From: Rhizodiscina lignyota
Lineage: Eukaryota
Direction: 5' to 3'
Length of the DNA: 64,000 bases
NCBI GenBank assembly: GCA_010015805.1
Contig: ML978121.1
Span: 496,001 to 560,000, forward strand
Shown here one piece after another: positions 13,644 through 49,769 of this stretch. The first letter of the stretch is position 1. Each line of letters opens with the position of its first letter. Both the position numbers and the translations under genes were made by a program. A model generated the notes under the pieces. The model searched no databases, had not been told where the DNA came from, and was given only the letters and a program-made list of their open reading frames with translations.

Positions 13644-14702
13644 TCAGTAGGCCTGGGTCCTCTGGCCGTGCCCAAGCATGCGAGAAAAGAAGCCGGCACC
13701 TGAAGTCTTGAGCTTCTTGCTCTTCTCGAACTGATCTGCCATTGGAGGCAGATGATGAACGCTCTTTTCCTTGAGCTGGGATTGCTCAATGTAGCGTGGG
13801 ACCATGACCTCTTCACTGACCACAGACGGACAGTAAGAGTCGTAGGGGTCAGCGTTGACGCTAGCTGGGGAGTTGATGCTAGTGACTGATGATGCATCGC
13901 TGTGCGCGGAGGCAGAAGAGTTGCTGCGGGTTGGAGGCGATAGCGACGGTGTACGAGAGGATGCCCGGGATGATGTTGCGTAGTGTTGCTGGATGATGTA
14001 GGATTGGCGCAGATCCGCAGCAGCACGTTGAGCTGCGAGCATCCGCGCTTGCTGAACCTCCCACTCGCGCTGTTGCTCGAGCTGGAGGCGTGCGTGCTCT
14101 TCTGCCTTGGCAGCCATCTTCATCCTAATGGGAGCGAGGAATGGTTCCAGGTGGAGGTACAGGTCTTCGGGCCGTATCGTCATGTCCCAGTCAAGAAGGA
14201 AGAGGAGCTGCTTCTCCATGAGATTCACCTCCGTGATGCTGAAGCCGAAGTTCTCGAAGCCACGGATTGCAGAGTAGCGTGCCCAGTGCTTGTTCTTTGG
14301 ACTCGAGTCATTGAGGTTCTTGGCCGCCAGGATGAGAGAAGCCAGGAAGATTCGGTGAACGGTACAGCGCATTCCCTTTGCCATTGGCGGCAATCGGGCT
14401 TTGAGTCGAGACAGGTAAACAAGGGAGGTCATGAGAGTTGGGACCTGGACATGTGACCGGTCAACCAACGAGGCGATGAACTCTTCCACCGATGGCAGTG
14501 AAGGATCCGTCGATGTTGCGCTAGTGTCCTCTGGAGATGCGGGCGGTGTCGGGAGTTGTTTTTGTGATTGTGTCTGATCACATCGAATAACCTGTGAAGC
14601 CTTCCTTGAGAGATACGAAATCATCTCACGTGAGACAGGGAGCTGCACGAAGTAGTCCAGGGCAGCCTCGTTCTGCTGTGCAGTGGGTACCGGATACGCC
14701 AT
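13644..14702 (-). CDS. Pho85-type cyclin (Pcl1/Pcl2, PclA-like), single exon
   Basis: Cyclin box [33 protein letters not shown]...[31 protein letters not shown]...[19 protein letters not shown] at 14702. Confidence 0.9.
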
Positions 14703-17700
14703 GGTCGCAGAAGTGGTTGCGTTGAAAGTGAGGAAAAGCTTTTTCGGAAGTAGAAATGTGCTTTGTAAACAAAAGCAATGTGTGGCGGCGTGTGTCAATA
14801 GATGTGATGCGGTGTTGCAAGGATCTATTTGATGTGTGTCGGCGGATATTGTCTAAGCAGGCAACAATATATGCAACAAGATGTCGACTGAAATGTAAGA
14901 CAATAAATGGCGTCGATAAATGGCGATGAAGATCAGCGAGGTGAATAAGATATTAAAGAATAGTTAATGATTGTTGGAAGGTGATGATACGGTGTGAGGC
15001 AGAATGCTGAGTTACAAGGTCGACTTGGTGGCAGCGACGGACAGGCAGGTATCCACGAGGCTGGAGGAATTAGGTATAAAAGTTGTCCGACCGGCGGAAG
15101 ATGGTGAAAAATTGGTGCAGTAGTGCAAAGAGCCTTGGACGAAGAGGGTATGTAGTGATCGAGGCGCCGCCCGCGAGTGTGGTCGTTGTAGGCAAGTGGA
15201 AGTGGTGGGAGGAGGACGCCGAAGGCTTAGCCAGGGCGGAGTGGTCGAGACTGCGGGGGGTAGAAGCGGATGGATGCAAGGCTGCAAATATGCAAAAGTG
15301 AATGAGCAGACCTCGAGCAAGGCGACGATGATGCTTAAGTATCAGCTCGATGCCACACCCCTTGAGCTCGCGGTAGGGATGCAAAAGAAGGGCAGCTCAG
15401 ACACTTGAGCGGTTCTTGAAGGGATAGAGATGCAGCGGCGGAGGGCGGGTTGATTGGCTGAGAGGCTTGCTGGATAGAGGCGCACCCTGGCACGCAGCGT
15501 TAACGAGGCCCTGCCAATGGCCGTGTGGTTGGCTGTCTCAGCGCCTCCCTAGCCCTGGGCGAAAGTGGGTGCAGAGCCACGGGAGCGTTGGCAGCCTGCG
15601 AAACTGTGCGGCGTGTTTCAAGATCTTCACGCTCTGCCGGCCTGTTCGATGAGATTTCTGCCGTTTGCGGGACGGCTGCCAGGGCCCAGGGTGAACTGCA
15701 GACGCTCTGGCGGCCAATGTGTGGTGTCGTTTGGAGCGGTGTCGTTTCGACCTTTCTCGCTCGTTTGAGGTGGATGCCTGTCGCTGCAAGGACGCTCTCC
15801 TCAGGCTCCGGTCGACGAAAATTCGGTCGCGGGCCAGGAGGCGTGCCGCGGATGCTGGGCGATTCGGCCTGCTTCGTGGGTCTGCTGGATTTGTGACACC
15901 TCTCTACGAAGGAGTCATGCTCTGCAGTATGCAGGTGCTGTGTAATGTGCGGGGGGCGAGTGGGCGATGGAGTTTTGTGACCTGGTAGCGGATGTGCTGG
16001 CAGGCGATGTCAGGTCTTCGCTCTTCGAAGAGTGTGAGAGAGTTGACGGGCGCCATTACGACGACGGCACGGCATCTTATGATGGTGGTGCAGCGCGAGG
16101 AAGTGGATGGCGTGGTCTTTGCCATCTTCTAGCCACGCCGCATTCTAGCTGACGACGATGGTGATGCACCAGCCTCCTTACCTGCTTTGCGCTCTATACA
16201 GGCCCAACCCCCGGAGATCCCGACAATCTTTACGATCTTTGCGACCAAAGTGGCTGGTGCTATTGCAATGCAATATTGAAAGGAACAGCGCGCCCCTGCG
16301 ATGCCATGTGAGCGGGATTGCTGCTGGCCGCCAGGTTTGCGGCGTGGAGGAAACCTGCTGCGGAGTGCGCAACGCCTTTCCCCATGCGGCGCGACGCTCA
16401 GCCACAGCCAGAAGTCTGCTGCAAATTCTTCCCAGTGGCCAACCACCTCCACCACCCTCTGCATTCTCAGCTACGAGACTCGAGAAGAATGTGCTAGACT
16501 CTCTTCCCCGGATGGCGATCCCGCTTTCATCTCTGCCCGAGAGTCTTTGCTCCCTCGCAGGCCCTTCGTCCAGCACGCGCAAGCCGATGAGGCGGTGCCA
16601 TTGGCCCACCCAGCAAATGTCTCAATTCCAGCTATCTGATGACCAGCACCCGTGGCCCACGACGCCAGTCAGCCAGGAGGTTAAGCTCATGCTGGCAGCA
16701 GCGCAATCTTCGCCCGACCCTCTCTTGCTGGTCGCTTGAATGCTCTTCCACTCTCCTCGCCAATCATGCGCTTCTGTCGCCGTCCGACTGATGCCGACAC
16801 GATCGCCTCATCAAGCGCTGCACCGCCTCATTGAAAGGGAGCTCTTCACCCGTCAAGTCAATCATTGCCTCAGCAGTGCTCAGCACGGAAATGTGTTTGC
16901 GGAGAAGCATTGTCGCAAGTATTTTGGTCATTAGCAAAGCTTTGTTCCGGTTTACACCCATACGCGCTCATGCAGCCGCCAGGACAACGACAAAGTCACC
17001 GGCGGCGATGCATCGTGCGCGCCCAACCGCCTATTCATTGTTACTTCGAAGCCTCAGGTCTAATAAAAAGCAATGATATTATTACAGTAGCACAAGCGAT
17101 GCGCCGAGCACGGCCGACTCTAATCTACCGGATGGTCTCACTCGCTTGCTTTGTTCTAGAGGTGCCACGACCGCCGGCAAAATGCACGACTGTTTCATTC
17201 GGGATGCCTATCAACGGCCTGCTCCAATTCCGGACGCTTCTCCACCAGCTACCCGTTTCGTAAACTTCTAGAAACTTTTGAGGCGCGGGCGTTTCTGCGG
17301 GCCTTTGCCAGCTCTGTGCCAGCGCTTAACGGAACGTGGGGGCCTGGCCACCTTATGCATGTCATTATCCTCCGATGATGTTTCAACTGTCCTTGATCGT
17401 CACTCGTCAGACGCTGAGGACTTTGTTCAAATTGCAGGTGAGCCCCTCCTCAATTAATGTTTTGCTTCCATTGTGTCGCTTTCCAGCATATGCTATTCTT
17501 GCAATACCCCCCAATAGACGCCAGCAAATCGCCATCGGACGGCAAACCACACTTCTGTTTTGGTTCCATCGACGATTGGATGAAGCAATCTGCTTGCGAC
17601 TTCGAATGCGGCCACCGGTCCCTGACCTATTACTTCATCTCTTGCTTACAATGTATGTCGTCGCCCGCTTTATCCAAGACAGAGGGACAAGGTTTACAAT

Positions 17701-17987
17701 GCTGTGAAGTCTTAGCAAATGTTTGTCTGCAAGCATCAAGGCACCAGCCTGAAGGCGTAGGAGATAAACATTGCGAGTAGTGAGAGTGAATTCCGCTCAA
17801 TGCCAATCCAGCTGACAGCAATCGCTTTACCCTCGTCGGACACAAACACTTTTTGACATGCACAAACTCGAGCACTTCACATCAACATTTCTTCATTTCC
17901 CTCACTGATATCAAGTGTAATTTCTTTCCTGTCTTCATTTGCGTATACTTCTTCTATGTTTTTGTTTTTTGATGTCGTACAGTTGTG

Positions 17988-18988
17988 TCATCGCTTTCTT
18001 GTTGCATAGCATTGAATGGTACCGCTGGGACCCCATTGCGGTGCATAAACTTCTGCGTCTTTCCCAGTGTTCTTGATTCCCTTATGCCAGCTCAGGTCTA
18101 GTGGTGTCAGTGCTATTGTTAAGAGTATCTGGAAGCTGCACTTACTAATCTCAAAGTAATGTTTGTTTGGCAACTCATATCGCACCCCATCAACACCGGG
18201 CACTGCAGCAAGGATAGAGCACGCCATTTTGTATGTGGTATCCTGTACGCTGGCACTGTCCTCGTCTGCAAATGTCTTCATCGTAATCCTGCGCGCCGAT
18301 TCCCACGCACTGTCGAAGTCTTTGTTGGCCTCGACCGCCTCAAAGGTTGGGAACGGTGCCCACTCCCACGTGCAATCCACTGATGTACTCAGCACTCGGT
18401 CCCACGTTTCTGGCAGGGTCGTATATTCGTCCTTGACATAGCCATGGAACTGTGATCCTGTGCTCTTGAGCACGAGCATCCCTTTGATGCCAGATGTGAT
18501 GGTGGTTGGACCATTCTCTTCGATGCGAGCTTCGACAGTGCGAGTCTCTTCTCCATCTCGGATGAACGAATGTGGATGCGGAACGCCATCGAAGACCATT
18601 CTCGTCCAGCGATGAACGGTTATCGAGACGGACGTCGCATGGATGTGAGGATATGTTGTGTTGAAGTGCTTCCCTATGAGTGCTGCAAAGTATTCGGGAG
18701 GGGTGACCGCATGCTCCTTGGCAAGGATGTAAACAGTATTCTTAATCGAGTCAGTCGCTACGATTGGTGTGTTGTCGGCATGTGTCCAGCTGCAGGCAAT
18801 ATCTCAGATTCAGCCGTTTCTTTCTTTCTATCGGGATTCTCATACGAGGCTTCAATTTCTCCTTCCAACATCACATTCAACGTCATTTCACACACGTCCT
18901 GTACGCCGGTTTCCGCATTCCGCATCACCTTGTACACTCGAACAGTGTGCTTGCCATAGCGGGCAAGCTCAAGATTGAACTGATCCAT
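17988..18988 (-). CDS. uaZ: Urate oxidase (uricase)-family protein, divergent, without C-terminal PTS1 (introns 18790-18845, 18098-18145)
   Basis: Spliced: ARYGKHTVRVYKV...LEGEIEASWTHADNTPIVATDSIKNT...VLKSTGSQFHGY..DEYTTLPETWDRVLST...SASVQ...LPNKHYF. Catalytic Lys, Thr, Arg, Gln, Asn and His equivalents are present. Protein ends YATRKR. Confidence 0.92.
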
Positions 18989-19433
18989 GATTGATTTTCC
19001 GGCCACGGTATTCTACGCTACCTTCCCATGCCTTCAACTTTGGACATGTCGCGCGTACTTAGCTTTGGCAAGCGCGTCGGAGTTCAGCGATGGTCGTGCT
19101 GAGTAGCCGCAATATGATCAGCTTCGAGATGGAATTTTAGTCACAAGGGCCGATTTCGGGTAGCAAGGCAGCCAGCTTCCGCACCCAAGTTGGACAACTC
19201 TTCCGAACACCGATTTCCACCGACTTGGCCACTGAACGCTCTTCCGATCCAGGCAGGCCGATTCTGATAGGGCCACACGGGAAATGCAAGGCACCCCTGC
19301 GTCCCCTCCGCACGCTGCCCTGCATTTCCTTATCTCTATCGCGACTCGTCAACAACGTCTATACAATATGGAACGCGCGATAGGAAGCAATCAACCGACT
19401 CTCTCTACAGCTTCACGAAGGATGCAAGGAACA

Positions 19434-19447
19434 TCGGAGGCCGCCGA
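19434..19447. promoter_or_regulatory. UaY/Ppr1-type Zn2Cys6 binding palindrome TCGG-N6-CCGA
   Basis: CA-TCGG-AGGCCG-CCGA-TG, an exact consensus with an extended palindrome, in the uricase/monooxygenase divergent promoter. A one-mismatch copy TCGG-AGTTCA-GCGA lies at 19077-19090. Confidence 0.6.
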
Positions 19448-19603
19448 TGGAGTTGTCGTGGCCTTCTTTGTTCCGAACTTTCTCGGCTCACACACGGGCA
19501 TTACCATTTCGAGATGACGACCGCCGACATTAAATGTTTCTGAGATGATACAGATGGCGAAGTTGATGTTCCCTGTGCCATCCTGGAAATTTTAGGAATT
19601 AAC

Positions 19604-21052
19604 ATGGCTGAAGAAAAGGTACGCGGAATTTTCTCACCTTTGCCTTTATGCTACACCTCAATTGCTCATTTACAATTGCACAGAAAACATACGACGTCAT
19701 TATTGTAGGCGCAGGTCCGGTCGGGCTCCTCGTTGCCCTGCGCCTAGGACAGCAAGGCATTCCAACGCTGGTGCTGGAAGCCCATCATGAGCTATTACCA
19801 ACGACGCGCGCGATGGTGTACATGCCAATGATCAACCGATGTCTCCACGAGCTGGGCCTGACGGAAACGATACAAAAGAACGCGTTCCTTAACCACGATG
19901 GTGTTGTCTGGCGCGACATAGAAGGCAACAAGCTCGCACAATTACCTCTGTCGCCGGAGGAGGGCGGCCAGTTTGGCGGGACGTACCAAATCGGCCAGGC
20001 GCGCATGAACCAATTGATCCTCACGGAGCTCATGAAGTGTGCCAGCGTAGACGTCAAGTTTGGCCTCCGCTGCGTGGGCATCGAAGACGACGCGTCCGCG
20101 GAGACCATCAAGGTCATGGCGCATCAATTGGGCCTTCCGGACGGCGACCTCTTCTTCGAAGGAAAGTACGTCCTTGGCGCCGACGGCAACGCAAGCGCCG
20201 TCCGCCGCATGATGTGCATCCCCTTCGACGGCTACACGTTCGCCGAGTTCAAGATGATCGGCATGGACATCCTGTTCGACTTTGGGAAGGAGTTCGACTG
20301 GACCCCGCTGAACTTCTTCGTCAACCCGGACGAGTGGGGCATAGTTGCGTTCACGGGGCAGCATGGAGGCGCGGCGCATGCCCCAGAGGACAAGCGGCCG
20401 CAGTGGAGAGTCGCGTTTGTGGAGCCGGTGGATCTCCCCACCGGGACCGAAGAATATATTAAGAGAGGGAGACTAAGGATTAAGAATTACCTGAAGGACA
20501 GGACAGACTACGAGATTGTGCGGGCGGAGAGCTATTGGCTGCATCAGAGGTGTGCGGCAAAGGCACGGAAAGGGAGGGTAATGCTCGCTGGGGACGCTCT
20601 ACATGTGAGTCCTCTCTATTGGGATCTATTCTGATATATATAAGCTAATGACGGGACAGTCCAACAACCCCATCGGCGGCCTCGGCCTCACCGGCGGCAT
20701 CCTCGACGCATTTGTCTACGGCAACGCGCTCACGCGCGTCCTGAAGCACGGCGAGCCGGACTCTGTCCTGACCGACTGCGCAACCTCAAGGCGAGACGCG
20801 TGGCTGAACGCGACGGCGAAGTTCGCGCTAGGCAACCTGCACAGGCTCGCAGACGCCGAGGGCGAGCAGGCGGAGGCGAGGAAGGAGTTCTTCGACAAGC
20901 TGAACAACGACCCGGGCTTCCCGAAGGCGTTCCGGAAGAACTTGGACAGCATGATGCCCGAGACGTTTGAGCTCAAGAGCGCGCCGATGCCGGAGAAGAT
21001 GATGCCGGAGACGTTTGAAATTCCGGTGAAGACGGTCGACGTGGCGGGTTAG
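19604..21052 (+). CDS. FAD-dependent monooxygenase (class A aromatic hydroxylase, FAD_binding_3 type) (introns 19619-19683, 20605-20659)
   Basis: DVIIVGAGPVGL (GxGxxG), YVLGADGNASAVRR (DG motif), GRVMLAGDALH|SNNPIGGLGLTGGILDA (GD motif). Confidence 0.9.
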
Positions 21053-30805: not shown

Positions 30806-33326
30806 TCAACTCGCGCCGGCGCGGATCACGAGTTTACTGAGGAATTTGTTGCTCAGGCTGTCAAAGTCGTTGCGGTCGAACTTGGCCTCGGGGCGCTGCT
30901 TAAGGTATTGTTCTGTTGGGAGTCACAGTCAGAGGCAGTGTCCGTCTTGCGCACGGCAAAACAAAAATTGATTAGGAAAAAGAAGAGAATAACTCACCAT
31001 ATTTCGAAACATGTTGGCGAACCTCGGTCATGGCATCGCACACTGCAGGGTTGTGGTTCAGCATCTGTGCGTGCTTGCGGGTGTCCCATTCGGTGAAGCT
31101 GGGCAGCTTGGTGGAGATGGCCTGGAAGAGACCGACGATGACGCCAACAGGCGTGCTCTCCATGTCATTGCAGAACTTCTCGACCTTGGCCTCGTCTGGC
31201 ACGCGGTAGCGGCAGTCGAATTGCATGAGCTCCCAAACGGCAAGCAGCAAGCTTGCGAGCATGAAGATGGTAGGCCAGTGCCTGAGCTTCTCGCCAGAGT
31301 AGACGGAGGAGTAGAGCTGGGACAACTCCTCGAGGATGTCCTTCATGAGCTCACGCCACATCTCGGCAAGAGCCTTCTTGATCTCAAAGTTGATCATGAC
31401 TGGTGCGCACGTGGCGCCATACCAGCGAGAGTTGGGGTCATTGATGCGGCCAACTTGCATCTCGTCCTCAGTGAGGCCCTTGACAGTGGTAATGTGAAGA
31501 GTAAGCGTATACGCGAGGACGAGCTTAAGAGCTTTGCGGATGACGGGTGCATTAGTCTTGAGCCAGTAGCGGTACGCCGTCTTGAGCATCTCGGTGAGGA
31601 ACGGTGTGCCCTCAAAGTACTCGTCAACGTACTTCTCAAAGCCGTAGTCGATGTAGTTGTCGAGGTATTCGGAGAGGACAAGATTCGAGACGCCACCCAT
31701 GCCAGCAGATAGCTTGTTGGTGGAGACCTCGAAGGCGATAGGCTTGGGGTGCAGAGTCTCGATCCAGTCAACACCGAAGCACTTCTCATCGCGAACGTAG
31801 ACCTCGCGAGCCATGAGCGGGAATTCGAAGCCATATCCATGGCTAATCATCAGCCTCCTCTCGATCTGGCTGAAGCCCTTGATGTTGGCAATGCTGAAGC
31901 CCAAAGTCACGTGACGCTCGTAATCAGCAGTCCAGTCCTTGACGAAATATCCAATGTCCTTGATGTCAATACGGGTGCAAGGAACTTGCCAGAGGCGGTG
32001 ATGAGAAGGCTGGCAGCCACCACATGGATCGCCCTTATCGCAGGTCTTCTTGAGATACTTGCACCTCAAGCACGCACCGACCTTGCGGATCTCGTGGGCC
32101 TGCTGGCGCTGCTCTGGGCGGAGAGGGCCCTTCCGACGGCCAACGCGGCGCTCTGTGGGAGATTTATCGCCTTTGGCACCAGTGGCGTTCTTCTTCTTGC
32201 CAATGACCTTAGCAGAGACGCCAGTGGGGCTCTTGCGGCGTTTGGAGGAGGGAGAAGCGGCACCAGAGGAAGCTGGGGACGTGGATTGCGAAGTAGCGAC
32301 GACAACACCCTGTGATTGTGAGAAGGAAGTGTTGACCTGCGGATGCATTGCCATGTTGTGATATTCGTTGTTGCCATGCGTGCCATGTGTAACGTTCTGC
32401 TGTTTCGATTCACCGCTCGACTCGGGCTCTGGCGAGGTCATGGGGAAAATCTCATCGTACGAGCCGTATGAGTGTGCGGAGAGTGGGACTTCGGACTGAT
32501 CTGAGGATGACGAATCGGTGCGGATGTGAAGGGCTTGCGGAGATACGACGCCGGAGATGTTGTTCTGTGGGAGCTCGGTAAACTCAAAAGAACCGTGAGA
32601 CGAGGAGAGGTTGACAACCGTCCAACCGTTGTCGCTACGGCCGGGAGACGAGTACTCAGCCCACTGCTCACCGGGCGACTGGCTGGCGATGCTCGATGGA
32701 GCGATGCTTGTGGTAGCGGCTTCGGCGGAGGAGATTGGGAAGCCGTTGAATTGCTGCTCGAAGCTGTCCATGGCAAATGCCATGTTGTTCATCGCTGGCT
32801 GCTCCATGGCACTCGTCATGGGCTGGTAGTAGGTATTCGAGTCGAAGGCGAGGCTATTATTGAGTTGGGCTTGAGTCGTTGCGGTCATGAAGTCGTTGAT
32901 CGGCGAGGTCTGAAGCGGCGCCCCGAACGACCCGCCATACGAAGTCTGCATGTTGTTGTTCTGGAGAAAAGACTGCTGAGCGGTGGCCTGCATCTGGAAC
33001 TGCTGCCACTCGGCGTTGCTCGTGGCCATGTTCATTGCTTGCGCGTAGCCGAAGCCAATGTTCTGGAGGGCCGGAGCAGCAGAGGTCGCGATGGTGAGCG
33101 ATCGCTGAGCAGCAGCGGTGGTTGCATTCTCGTTCGAGCGCCTCGAGTCGCCGGGCATGTTGAGGTTGCTGGCGCCGGCGTGCTGATGGTGCTGGTTCGA
33201 CATGTCGAGCAGCGGCCAGGTGCTTGCTTGGAGGAAGGAGTAGCGGTGCTGCTGGTTGTCGTAGACCTGAGGCTCAAAGGCAGCAGAGAGCGGATCTGCT
33301 CCTTGAGATGGATCGAGAGGATCCAT
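30806..33326 (-). CDS. Zn2Cys6-like transcription factor with long Q/S/N-rich N-terminus (intron 30913-30997)
   Basis: RKVGACLRCKYLKKTCDKGDPCGGC...VPC six-Cys cluster preceded by basic NLS-like segments. Last exon EQYLKQRPEAKFDRNDFDSLSNKFLSKLVIRAGAS*. Confidence 0.85.
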
Positions 33327-45995: not shown

Positions 45996-48900
45996 ATGGG
46001 CCGGACGTCGAAGTTCTCGTTCTCCTTGTCTGGGCGAAAAGGGTCAGCTGCGAAGGAACCGGAGGAGCATCATGACGTGCCACAATGGGTCCCTGCTGCT
46101 CCAAGCGCTAGCAATATGAACATGAGTAAAGTGGAACGACTTTTGGGAGCATCGAGTCTGCCAGTACGGTCGTCACCTTCATACAACTCCTCGGAGCGGG
46201 CATCTCTTAATACGAAACCGAGTTATATGACCCTCACCGTGTCCGAAGCAAGCGCCGACTATAGCGATCACGGGATGACCGCGTCTACAGCTCCCGCGCA
46301 ACATTACCGAGCTTCACGGGGATATCAGAGCCTGCGGCATCGGGCCTCGTCCAACTTGCTTGGCCTGTCTGGCGACCATGACGCTCCTGTCGCGTCTTCA
46401 GCAAGCATCGACACGAGAGATCTACGGGCAGAGCATTCATCATCAACACTGCGGTCATACTACGACGCACAGAAATCGCCGTTATTAGTATCGCAGCAGA
46501 CATCAGCCTCAGCCGTGCGAGACATGGCACTGAGGAAAGGCATGCACCAAGTAATACCATTGGATCACGACGCCAGGCAAGACGCCCGAAATATGGTACC
46601 AGAAAGTGCAGAAACAAGCAGAACAGCCTCCGTAGCAAGCACCGCAAAGCAAAAGAAACCAGGAAGACTCGACTTTTCCAGACTCTTTCCCAGACCCAGA
46701 ACATCTAGCCACAATCTCCATGGCAATAACGACGTTGTCAAGTCCCCGGACCAAATCTCAGTGGCATCAGAGCACTTTCCACCACCACCGCCGCCGCCAA
46801 TGTTGTCGCCGCAAGAACGACCTCCGTCTCGGAAGAGCAACAAATCATCAGCAGAACCGCCACAGTCTCGAAGGAACTCAAAGGCAACGACAGCAGACCG
46901 GCGACAATCCCGTAGGAGCTCCAAGGCTGCCTCGCTCCTTCTTATGAAAGCGAGACCGGAAAGTTCCATTCGGCACGCCAAAACCATGTCCACTGCAAGC
47001 AGTGTGCGCAGCCAACCGTATGAGAATCCAAAGAACAATGTGCACCGTCCACCTCCAGGGATCCAGAATTGGTTTGACGGATTACTGGAGGAAGAAGATG
47101 AGGATGATTTGGAAGGAGCCGACGAACGAGAAGTGGAGAAACAGCCATCGGCCCCACCGCAAACCTCCTTAGATGATCACGATTCCGATGAGTCGGAAGC
47201 AAGAGACACATTACCCGACTATGAGAAACCTCCGCCTCGTGATATCCAACCTAACTCCTTACTATCCCATCCTTCTCTACGCCTGATTTCGGAGATTCCT
47301 AAACCCAGTCCGGCCAGCGTGCAACAACCTCGCCCAACGACGCCGCGAAAAAGCTCAATGCATTCTTCAGGCCAGCGTAGCCGGGCAAACACATCTGAAG
47401 ACAACCAAACTACATCCGAGCAACGGTCAGTAGAGCAACGGTCAGTGGAACAACGGTCGGTCGAACAGAGGTCAATCGAACAGCGGTCAGTCGAACAACG
47501 TTCAGTCGAGCAGCGCTCACCACCAAGGCTGAAGGCGCAAGCGCCGCCACGTGCAATCTCTAATAAAGCTCATCGCCATTCTATGATGAGTCACACGACA
47601 GCTACAACAGTCACATCAGCTGGTAGCAAGAATAGCAAACTCGCAGACCTTGACCTCCACAACTCGAGCGCCCTTTCCTTGTCATCATCGGATGAAGAAG
47701 GAGACGGTGACTTGTCTCTCCCGGCAATACGCGATAGCATCAACATATCCGATTTGCCTACTGAGAACATACTCATCGGCAAGGCAAGGGCCTTTGAAGT
47801 TAAGCCAAAGAAACGACCCAACGAGCCAATCCGCGTACCGTCAACTCCTGTTGAAAGCAATTCCACCAATATCATTGCAGTTCGAGGATCAGATTCCGAG
47901 GAATCGATCGCTTCGGAACCGAAGTCTGCCGGTCCTCGAACTGAAAGGAACGAACAAGCTCTGCGTGAATTCAGTGCCACTCATACCGATGGAGCTCGTG
48001 AGACTCCACGTCCACACACCAGTGGCGCGCATATGCCTACTCGAAAGGATAGAACTGCCTCACCCTCGTCTGGGAGCCAGAAGCGTCGCTCACTGCGCAG
48101 CGAGGTCACGGAAGCAGCAAGCTTCGGTCATGGCCATAAACTGATGGCTGTCACTCCGGAAGAAGAGGCTCTGTTAGAAATGATGAGGACGAAGAGAGCA
48201 GCAATGGCGAAGCATAACTTCAAAGAAGGCTACAAGCTGGCAAAGAAACAGGAAGGAAAGAAAAAGGAGAAGGTTAGCAGGCCGCCAAGCTTGCACGCAG
48301 ATGCTGTGCTAGCGAACATGGCTCATGCGATCTTAAGCAGCGGCCCCAACAGTGCTGACCCACCGCAGGACGCGAAAGACGCGGACGCTGTTGTCACGGT
48401 GAACAGCACGTTTGGTGAGATTATAGATGCTTTTCCCACCCCTTCGCCGACGTCTAATCGCTTCTCGACGACGTATTTGCCGCGGACCGAAGAGCGCAGC
48501 GGCAGCCCTGGCCTATCTGTGGCATCTTCCTCGCGACGTGGACGCTCGAAGAGACACTCCAATTTGTCAACCATGAGCTCAAATGTCCAATCAATGTCTG
48601 GCACATCTGCAACATCATCATCCCCAATCCCTAACGCTGATTCATCCGAAGCAGAAAGCATCGCGTTACTTGAAGGATCGGTCTCGGAACACGTCTCCAA
48701 CGCGTCGACCGTAAAGAGGAAGCCTGGCTTCGACCGGCTCTCGCTCACGCCAATGGACATTTCGATTGGCTCCTTGGAAAGGGAAAGGTCTGGATCCGTG
48801 GCACAGCAATCTTCAACATCCAGTCCTGAAGATGAGAAGACGCAGGAGTCCCAGCGTCAATCCAGCGAAGAAATCATCATCGAGGCTACCGAAAGCGTTG

Positions 48901-49769
48901 TCGCGGAGAATGATACAGACGACTCTGAGGAGTTAAGACAAGAGCTAAACCTGCTTTCACCCCTGCTTCCAGATGAAGAGACACCGGTGCCCAGTAACGA
49001 CGAACACCTCAAAGTCGCGAAGACACGCAGACGTACCAGCATGAGAATTAATGTCGACCCCGAGCCTCCGTCAGCTGCTCCCGGTTCTCCGCTCCCATCA
49101 CCGCGACTTCCCCCGTCACCACGGAGGTCTCACACACCCAAGTCGAACAAGCGGCTGAGCACAGAGTATCGCCTCATCCCGAAGATCACTCCTTCCCCAG
49201 TCTCTCCCTCTTTCCCGCCCATGGCCACAAACCTGGAAGACAGCGACCCCACAACTTCACCCACACCCGTCCAAAACACCTCCCGCACAATGAGCGTTCC
49301 CACTCTCTTGCAATCATCCCTCAGTGACCAATCATCGGAGGGAAGCAGTGGGCGCCCACGCCTCGTTTCGGCCAACTCCGCCCCTGCCCCGGTCCTGGGT
49401 CGCACAACGCCCACCTCCACGCCGTCGGGGGCGTCCTCGTCCTCGTCGACGATCCAGCGGGTCAAGCCGCGTACGATCAACATCGCGAATGTGAAGAAAG
49501 CGTTCAGCGTGGCCCGCGATCCAAGTCCCATGTCAGCGCCGCTTCCCAGACGGAGCGGAAGCAGAGATAGGAGGGAGAAGAAGGCAAAGAGTCGTCAGAG
49601 CTTCCAGGGCATCGATCGGGAGCCTGCCATTGCGGGAGCGAAGATGGAGTCTGGCGAAGGGACGGATAGGTGCAGCGTGAGCGAGGATGTCCTGGCAGCG
49701 TGGGGAAGCCTGGGAGGATGGAGGGGCTTCGATACCGTGGGCGTTGCAGCAGGCAGCGATGGGAATTAG
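45996..49769 (+). CDS. Large single-exon Ser/Pro-rich, probably disordered protein (1257 aa) of unknown function
   Basis: Uninterrupted 3.8 kb ORF with a few ordered-looking islands: LRSYYDAQKSPLLVSQQTSASAVRDMALRKG, IQNWFDGL, LMAVTPEEEALLEMMR.KRAAM, SVSEDVLAAWGSLGG. Confidence 0.85.
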   Translation: MGRTSKFSFSLSGRKGSAAKEPEEHHDVPQWVPAAPSASNMNMSKVERLLGASSLPVRSSPSYNSSERASLNTKPSYMTLTVSEASADYSDHGMTASTAPAQHYRASRGYQSLRHRASSNLLGLSGDHDAPVASSASIDTRDLRAEHSSSTLRSYYDAQKSPLLVSQQTSASAVRDMALRKGMHQVIPLDHDARQDARNMVPESAETSRTASVASTAKQKKPGRLDFSRLFPRPRTSSHNLHGNNDVVKSPDQISVASEHFPPPPPPPMLSPQERPPSRKSNKSSAEPPQSRRNSKATTADRRQSRRSSKAASLLLMKARPESSIRHAKTMSTASSVRSQPYENPKNNVHRPPPGIQNWFDGLLEEEDEDDLEGADEREVEKQPSAPPQTSLDDHDSDESEARDTLPDYEKPPPRDIQPNSLLSHPSLRLISEIPKPSPASVQQPRPTTPRKSSMHSSGQRSRANTSEDNQTTSEQRSVEQRSVEQRSVEQRSIEQRSVEQRSVEQRSPPRLKAQAPPRAISNKAHRHSMMSHTTATTVTSAGSKNSKLADLDLHNSSALSLSSSDEEGDGDLSLPAIRDSINISDLPTENILIGKARAFEVKPKKRPNEPIRVPSTPVESNSTNIIAVRGSDSEESIASEPKSAGPRTERNEQALREFSATHTDGARETPRPHTSGAHMPTRKDRTASPSSGSQKRRSLRSEVTEAASFGHGHKLMAVTPEEEALLEMMRTKRAAMAKHNFKEGYKLAKKQEGKKKEKVSRPPSLHADAVLANMAHAILSSGPNSADPPQDAKDADAVVTVNSTFGEIIDAFPTPSPTSNRFSTTYLPRTEERSGSPGLSVASSSRRGRSKRHSNLSTMSSNVQSMSGTSATSSSPIPNADSSEAESIALLEGSVSEHVSNASTVKRKPGFDRLSLTPMDISIGSLERERSGSVAQQSSTSSPEDEKTQESQRQSSEEIIIEATESVVAENDTDDSEELRQELNLLSPLLPDEETPVPSNDEHLKVAKTRRRTSMRINVDPEPPSAAPGSPLPSPRLPPSPRRSHTPKSNKRLSTEYRLIPKITPSPVSPSFPPMATNLEDSDPTTSPTPVQNTSRTMSVPTLLQSSLSDQSSEGSSGRPRLVSANSAPAPVLGRTTPTSTPSGASSSSSTIQRVKPRTINIANVKKAFSVARDPSPMSAPLPRRSGSRDRREKKAKSRQSFQGIDREPAIAGAKMESGEGTDRCSVSEDVLAAWGSLGGWRGFDTVGVAAGSDGN
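47418..47522 (+). repeat. 7 x 15-bp coding tandem repeat (EQRS[V/I/P])
   Basis: gagcaacggtcagta / gagcaacggtcagtg / gaacaacggtcggtc / gaacagaggtcaatc / gaacagcggtcagtc / gaacaacgttcagtc / gagcagcgctcacca. Confidence 0.9.

Follow-up and report, generated by a model that had tools for sequence, protein, structure and literature searches.

In a 64-kb window of the Rhizodiscina lignyota genome (C1:496001-560000 of the 33.4-Mb fungal assembly; positions given without a contig are those within this window), a uricase gene on the minus strand and a flavin monooxygenase gene on the plus strand are arranged head-to-head, both intact, with start codons at positions 18988 and 19604 and a shared divergent spacer of 615 nt (18989-19603). 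Our favored interpretation, to which we give about an even chance, is that the pair represents a urate-inducible second uricase and an aromatic ipso-hydroxylase that sits on the same promoter as a bystander. Under this interpretation, urate would activate a UaY-type transcription factor, which would bind two CGG sites in the spacer, and AreA at GATA sites would assist induction when ammonium is absent. The second uricase would then convert urate to 5-hydroxyisourate in the cytosol. With FAD, NAD(P)H and O2, the monooxygenase would introduce a hydroxyl group into a substituted phenol or a hydroxypyridine, at the carbon that carries the leaving group, and would at most be co-induced through the common spacer, as a neighbor and not as an enzyme acting on urate or methylurates.

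The uricase gene (P0001, 298 aa; 17988..18988, minus strand) consists of three exons (18988-18846, 18789-18146 and 18097-17988) separated by two GT..AG introns, i.e., a 56-nt intron 1 (18790..18845, minus strand), whose position is shared with the canonical uricase gene of the same genome, and a 48-nt, in-frame intron 2 (18098..18145, minus strand), which is absent from the canonical copy and is kept as an insert in the unspliced models of several relatives. The encoded protein matches the Pfam Uricase family (PF01014; E = 4e-65) and, over its full length, the A. flavus uricase (E = 2e-113), and scores 347.9 bits against the urate oxidase equivalog model TIGR03383 (cut-off 168.4). All 16 catalytic and pocket positions compared are the same as in the A. 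flavus uricase, including the Lys10-Thr57 dyad, His256, Asn254, the ligand-binding residues Asp58, Arg176, Val227, Gln228 and Phe159, and Gly286, which we take to be the sixteenth such position. The roles of the other 15 residues are named in PMC7792999. As these 16 residues are kept, the window copy has most likely remained a urate oxidase, and the simplest reading of its sequence is an active enzyme that is perhaps retuned.

The initial annotation of this locus had raised the question of a separate canonical uricase; this gene is present on contig C8, shows 60% identity to the window copy over the main exon, ends in ARL, i.e., a type 1 peroxisomal targeting signal (PTS1), and groups with Dothideomycete-type uricases. 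The window copy ends in RKR, has no PTS1 and does not group with these uricases. Fungal uricases often lack a PTS1: a strict PTS1-like C-terminal tripeptide was found in 31 of 118 relatives, a number that rises to 61 when the rule is relaxed. The window uricase has one close relative, P0002, which is 86% identical and shares most of the unusual residues described below within the part that it covers; among the best 120 matches (of 2350), the remaining 118 are 56-65% identical and carry canonical motifs. Beyond P0002, no further uricases of the window type were found by a region search (5 matches among 13 candidates) or in the best 150 of 2365 matches among 50% representatives, 10 of which were looked up. 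In a tree of 38 rows, from which distant and long rows were excluded, the window uricase is located outside the starred clade of the canonical copy, and a forced grouping of the two was rejected (p-AU = 0.004, to be read with caution because of the long branch). Overall, the sequence comparisons indicate that the window uricase is a long-diverged second urate oxidase and not a recent copy of the fungus's own peroxisomal uricase. A transfer from Sordariomycetes was also considered and is unsupported, as the long branch joins the tree outside that clade, at an unsupported position, and no donor can be named.

Could the second uricase be a decaying duplicate, and the arrangement with the monooxygenase functionless? 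The very narrow distribution of this uricase type and its low codon bias (GC content at third codon positions, GC3, of 0.58 vs. 0.85 in the canonical copy) would fit such a history; however, the open frames, the canonical splice sites and all catalytic residues are kept, and the unusual residues are largely shared with P0002, so that we regard decay as very unlikely. Compared to the A. flavus uricase (UOX) and A. nidulans UaZ, the window copy has in common the full-length match, the pocket residues and the upstream UaY-type sites, and differs in being the second uricase of its genome, in its long branch, in the lack of a PTS1 and in changes at second-shell positions. Extra diverged copies beside a canonical gene, with unassigned specificity, have been described for the fungal XanA paralogues (PMC5611559); these paralogues lose substrate-binding residues, whereas the window uricase keeps them. 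Two other groups of uricases were of note. The Niveomyces-type uricases P0077, P0046 and P0402 carry W at position 282 as in the window enzyme (P0046 and P0402 also share T at position 231) and are separate in the tree, possibly reflecting convergence, and P0250 and P0391 form another long-branch clade (~1.1 changes per column), which represents a further diverged-uricase candidate.

The spacer contains an exact TCGG-N6-CCGA palindrome (19434-19447, plus strand; also fitting CGGAG-N4-CCGA), whose distance upstream of the start codons is 157-170 nt for the monooxygenase and 446-459 nt for the uricase, as well as a variant with one mismatch, TCGGAG-N4-GCGA (19077-19090, plus strand), located 89-102 nt upstream of the uricase start codon; four HGATAR motifs, which may represent AreA sites, lie between these two sites, at 19265, 19330, 19336 and 19378 (19265..19383). 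These elements, like the head-to-head arrangement and the length of the spacer, are placed as the initial annotation had described them. TCGG-N6-CCGA is the UaY consensus of A. nidulans, and the variant site has the same form as a site 281 nt upstream of the xanthine dehydrogenase gene of this genome. Over the 64-kb window, neither exact TCGG-N6-CCGA (2 observed vs. 1.17 expected) nor its one-mismatch forms (23 vs. 29 expected) were enriched, and tests at the level of the spacer and of the regulon were used instead. With the motif named in advance and the 615-nt spacer as target, the genome-wide number of exact sites (432 in 33.4 Mb) gives a chance of ~0.8% per 615 nt, and dinucleotide shuffling of the spacer produced an exact site in 86 of 5000 trials (1.7%). 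At least four HGATAR motifs were present in 231 of the 5000 shuffled spacers, and across the genome this motif occurs at 2.1 per kb; the GATA sites thus represent weak, borderline evidence.

To compare the spacer sites with those of the purine regulon, nine purine-pathway genes were located in the genome and 1 kb upstream of each was read (a second transporter match, whose start could not be placed, was excluded from this count). CGG-N6-CCG occurred upstream of five of these genes, with 9 sites in 9 kb, as compared to 10 in the 45 kb upstream of 30 zinc-cluster domains that served as control DNA; it was not found within 1 kb upstream of the xanthine dehydrogenase gene (hxA), the OHCU (2-oxo-4-hydroxy-4-carboxy-5-ureidoimidazoline) decarboxylase gene and both ureidoglycolate-lyase matches. 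One of the latter is a second, divergent match to this family at C19:404720-404911. The narrower form CGGAG-N4-CCGA (259 genome-wide) occurred four times in the 9 kb of purine promoters, i.e., twice upstream of the canonical uricase (uaZ) and once each upstream of the uapA-like and 5-hydroxyisourate (HIU) hydrolase genes, as compared to none in the 45 kb of control DNA, and the hxA promoter carries TCGGAG-N4-GCGA. The spacer contains one site of each of these two CGGAG forms, and two such sites were present in only 2 of 5000 shuffles, although this estimate is optimistic, as the refinement was picked after the spacer had been viewed. Three CGGAG-N4-CCGA sites elsewhere in the genome were spot-checked; one of them (C3:3175296-3175308) lies ~1.4 kb upstream of an allantoinase gene and has inner bases identical to those of the uapA-like site.

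A gene for a PPR1-type Zn2Cys6 factor, a candidate for UaY, is encoded at C5:725638 (E = 1.6e-8 to 1pyi; one among the 90 of 150 zinc-cluster matches inspected); no CGGAG-type site was found in the 6 kb around it. UaY is described as a regulator of purine genes and as kin to PPR1 in PMC5746545. Taken together, the likeness of the spacer sites to those of the fungus's own purine genes, the absence of CGGAG-N4-CCGA from the control promoters and the presence of a PPR1/UaY-type factor bear out the UaY-type site proposed in the initial annotation, and this site is probably functional. If the favored interpretation holds, CGGAG-N4-CCGA would be a candidate for a species-specific form of the UaY site. 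On the other hand, a UaY-type site is in any case expected upstream of a uricase, and hence does not by itself indicate that the neighboring monooxygenase was recruited. The likeness to the UaY/AreA regulon of A. nidulans comprises CGG-N6-CCG accompanied by GATA sites close by, the presence of a PPR1-type regulator and the site form found at uaZ, hxA, uapA and the HIU hydrolase gene; we know of no flavin monooxygenase in that regulon.

The monooxygenase gene (19604..21052, plus strand) encodes a group A flavoprotein monooxygenase of 442 aa (Pfam FAD_binding_3) in three exons (19604-19618, 19684-20604 and 20660-21052) separated by two GT..AG introns (19619-19683 and 20605-20659). The public gene model, P0121, starts at an alternative in-frame ATG (19648) and omits the conserved SNNPIGGLGL with which exon 3 opens; a protein of 442 aa is supported by the DNA. 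The protein carries the GxGxxG, DG and GD motifs and the p-hydroxybenzoate hydroxylase (PHBH) fold, and comparisons of sequence, profile and fold place it in the PnpA/HspB branch. In a single-sequence search, PnpA (E = 8e-32) and HspB (E = 5e-23) were matched far better than HpxO (E = 3e-5), and with a profile of 44 sequences PnpA scored 277.5 bits (E = 1.7e-81) and HspB 224.2 bits (E = 2.5e-65), as compared to 99 bits (E = 2e-27) for the next match and 44.5 bits for HpxO. A fold search with a model of exon 2 (pLDDT 91.8) returned PnpA and HspB structures at ranks 1 to 5, with TM scores of 0.86 and 0.82, respectively, over the modeled exon. A search of the ESM Atlas found generic FAD-binding clusters only, and a scan of bacterial genomes with the single monooxygenase protein gave no match. 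The window enzyme resembles PnpA (p-nitrophenol 4-monooxygenase, 6ain) and HspB (6-hydroxy-3-succinoylpyridine 3-monooxygenase, 7da9) in its length, in having no extra C-terminal domain and in keeping the arginine of the aligned WRV, and differs from them in being fungal and only ~30% identical, which leaves its substrate unfixed. PnpA denitrates p-nitrophenol and HspB converts succinoyl-hydroxypyridine to 2,5-dihydroxypyridine (PMC8401168), suggesting a substituted phenol or hydroxypyridine as the probable class of substrate. A paralogue with 33% identity is located at C11:524734-525660, ~6.4 kb from the HIU hydrolase gene (C11:532021) with unrelated genes in between, which is probably a chance placement.

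These data do not agree with the initial annotation's proposal of a monooxygenase akin to HpxO and TmuM that would act, next to a methylurate-adapted uricase, on urate or methylurates. UaY-type sites are present, the broad fold class is common to the window enzyme and HpxO, and TmuM is described as HpxO-like and active on trimethylurate (PMC4408171). The score against the HpxO model NF033623 was, however, only 56.1 bits (cut-off 500), and that against the MhpA NCBIfam model, 121 bits, was also far below its cut-off (390). With PnpA and HspB well ahead of HpxO in the profile search, the enzyme grouped with phenolic-type hydroxylases rather than with HpxO. The unchanged uricase pocket also gives no indication of methylurates as substrates: Gln228, Arg176, Val227, Thr57 and Asp58 would leave no evident room for methyl groups at N1, N3 and N7. 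The bacterial caffeine cluster is further described as having a dedicated hydrolase and decarboxylase (TmuH/TmuD) beside TmuM (PMC4408171), whereas no second HIU hydrolase, OHCU decarboxylase or xanthine dehydrogenase was found in this genome (one match each). The group A fold is shared with HpxO (FAD-dependent urate hydroxylase) and TmuM (trimethyluric acid monooxygenase, compared by its description only), and the purine context of the window enzyme is given by its neighborhood only. HpxO substitutes for uricase rather than partnering with it. We therefore consider this proposal quite unlikely. The broader idea of a co-regulated purine module retains the spacer site, the regulator and the separate uricase in its favor, and loses the chemistry that had been proposed for it.

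Several observations nevertheless weigh against our favored interpretation. The window uricase has changes at second-shell positions that are nearly fixed in fungi, i.e., D11H and N12T (the changed residue occurring in 0 of 93 fungal sequences for each), Y46W (0 of 109), M231T (1 of 118), S282W (2 of 118), and N285S and L287T (0 of 118 for each); these positions are variable among distant uricases. The stem leading to the window uricase and P0002 measures ~1.0 changes per column and is followed by short tips; together with the changes at nearly fixed positions, this is the pattern of changed function. Two rare, patchily distributed genes stand head-to-head amid housekeeping genes, and the exact TCGG-N6-CCGA site is closer to the monooxygenase than to the uricase. 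The CGGAG refinement is post hoc, having been selected once the spacer was seen; CGGAG-N4-CCGA also occurs in coding DNA of the window (38268 and 49368), and the other two of the three spot-checked genome sites (C2:3041055/3041289 and C1:1711834/1713235) lie inside long open frames and provide no validation.

The long stem and the second-shell changes would also fit a uricase with a changed substrate that has a non-purine aromatic compound or heterocycle as a common target with the monooxygenase, with the UaY-type site being a leftover or a chance occurrence (the probability of an exact site by chance being ~1-2%). The bacterial locus closest to the monooxygenase profile among the matches listed (L030:2734-11029) contains a gene of the aminomethyltransferase family, an intradiol dioxygenase gene and a gene of the iron-alcohol-dehydrogenase family, as in aromatic breakdown clusters, and is consistent with such a pathway. 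However, every first-shell urate-binding residue is kept, and two sites of the form found in the fungus's own purine promoters are present in the spacer, making this alternative improbable.

A possible, though in our judgment rather doubtful, alternative is a two-step module under UaY control, in which the PnpA-type enzyme would ipso-hydroxylate a substituted purine or a similar N-heterocycle, and the product, urate or a near analogue, would be oxidized by the retuned uricase. Both genes are rare and intact, the exact site is only 157 nt from the monooxygenase start, and enzymes of this branch denitrate (PnpA) or act on a hydroxypyridine (HspB) (PMC8401168). HxnX, a fungal group A monooxygenase of an AreA-controlled pathway, is described as carrying out decarboxylative hydroxylation of an N-heterocycle (PMC9304392 and PMC5746545), and the changes in the uricase flank Lys10, which waters connect with the ligand's N9 side (PMC7792999). 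Possible substrates of such a module would be, e.g., C8-nitro, C8-carboxy or C8-halo xanthines; a specific version, in which the PnpA-type enzyme would strip the C8 nitro, carboxy or halo group from damaged or pterin-derived xanthine and feed a dedicated cytosolic uricase, appears hardly likely. Against the module, codon GC3 differs between the genes (0.74-0.90 vs. 0.58 in the uricase), the monooxygenase subclade is spread more widely than the uricase type, and the pair was not encountered a second time (see below). To our knowledge, no purine substrate has been reported for the PnpA/HspB branch. Since the monooxygenase resembles enzymes that act on substituted phenols or pyridines, a purine pathway shared by the two genes is no more than a possibility.

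Conservation of the pair was assessed by alignment-based locus scans, in which the matches listed were mostly 23-34% identical. The monooxygenase family is patchy in ascomycetes, and the subclade of the window enzyme comprises 9 of 51 rows, among them sequences from Trichoderma velutinum (KAL7911028.1) and Clohesyomyces (ORY10049.1); the window-type uricase did not turn up from named genomes carrying this subclade. Only two close relatives of the monooxygenase were present among the 80 metagenome loci listed, L025 and L026, the second of which is too short to be informative. In L025 (53% identity, with 10 kb upstream and 0.3 kb downstream), the divergent neighbor encodes a glycine decarboxylase, followed by a major facilitator superfamily (MFS) transporter; no uricase was present in the 10 kb upstream and no CGG-N6-CCG within 1 kb of this one informative locus, which covers the upstream side only. 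L025 also belongs to a different monooxygenase subclade, so that the nearest relatives are not represented in this comparison, which likewise counts against our favored interpretation. Across the 160 loci listed, which are mostly bacterial and distant, no uricase, HIU hydrolase, OHCU decarboxylase, allantoinase, allantoicase or ureidoglycolate lyase was detected with fungal queries, whose reach is limited at such distances; xanthine-dehydrogenase-like genes occurred in 2 of the 160. Overall, the evidence leans against conservation of the pair, from a weak test. No report of a fungal uricase-monooxygenase pair was found in the literature searched, mostly non-subscription papers.

If our favored interpretation is true, the window encodes a natural uricase variant that is rare, keeps its active site intact and differs in ~40% of its sequence from canonical enzymes; it may be of modest use in uricase engineering, and raises the question why a fungus retains both a peroxisomal and a cytosolic uricase. 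The two-step module, if true, would add a flavin step to a pathway deemed complete in fungi and provide a first substrate lead for the fungal PnpA-like family; its version with C8 substituents would open a new route into purine catabolism in fungi and give the PnpA branch its first purine substrate.

Among the 30 window frames scanned with Pfam, the genes to the left of the pair encode a mitochondrial calcium uniporter, a sugar transporter, a P-type ATPase and a cyclin, and those to the right a 3,4-dihydroxy-2-butanone 4-phosphate (DHBP) synthase and a HET protein; no benzoquinone reductase or ring-cleavage genes were recognized among these frames. One public sequencing run covering the stretch showed zero differences and may itself be the source of the assembly. 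The 3.3-kb gap between the cyclin and uricase genes (14702-17988) contains no recognized gene but a frame of 193 aa (16158-16739) that matches nothing in Pfam, and the G skew is strong at 14-16 kb; two long frames elsewhere, 45996-49769 (plus strand, 1257 aa) and 30972-33326 (minus strand, 784 aa), also have no Pfam match. The DHBP synthase gene (riboflavin synthesis, RIB3-like; 21777 to about 22600, minus strand) is convergent with the monooxygenase gene.

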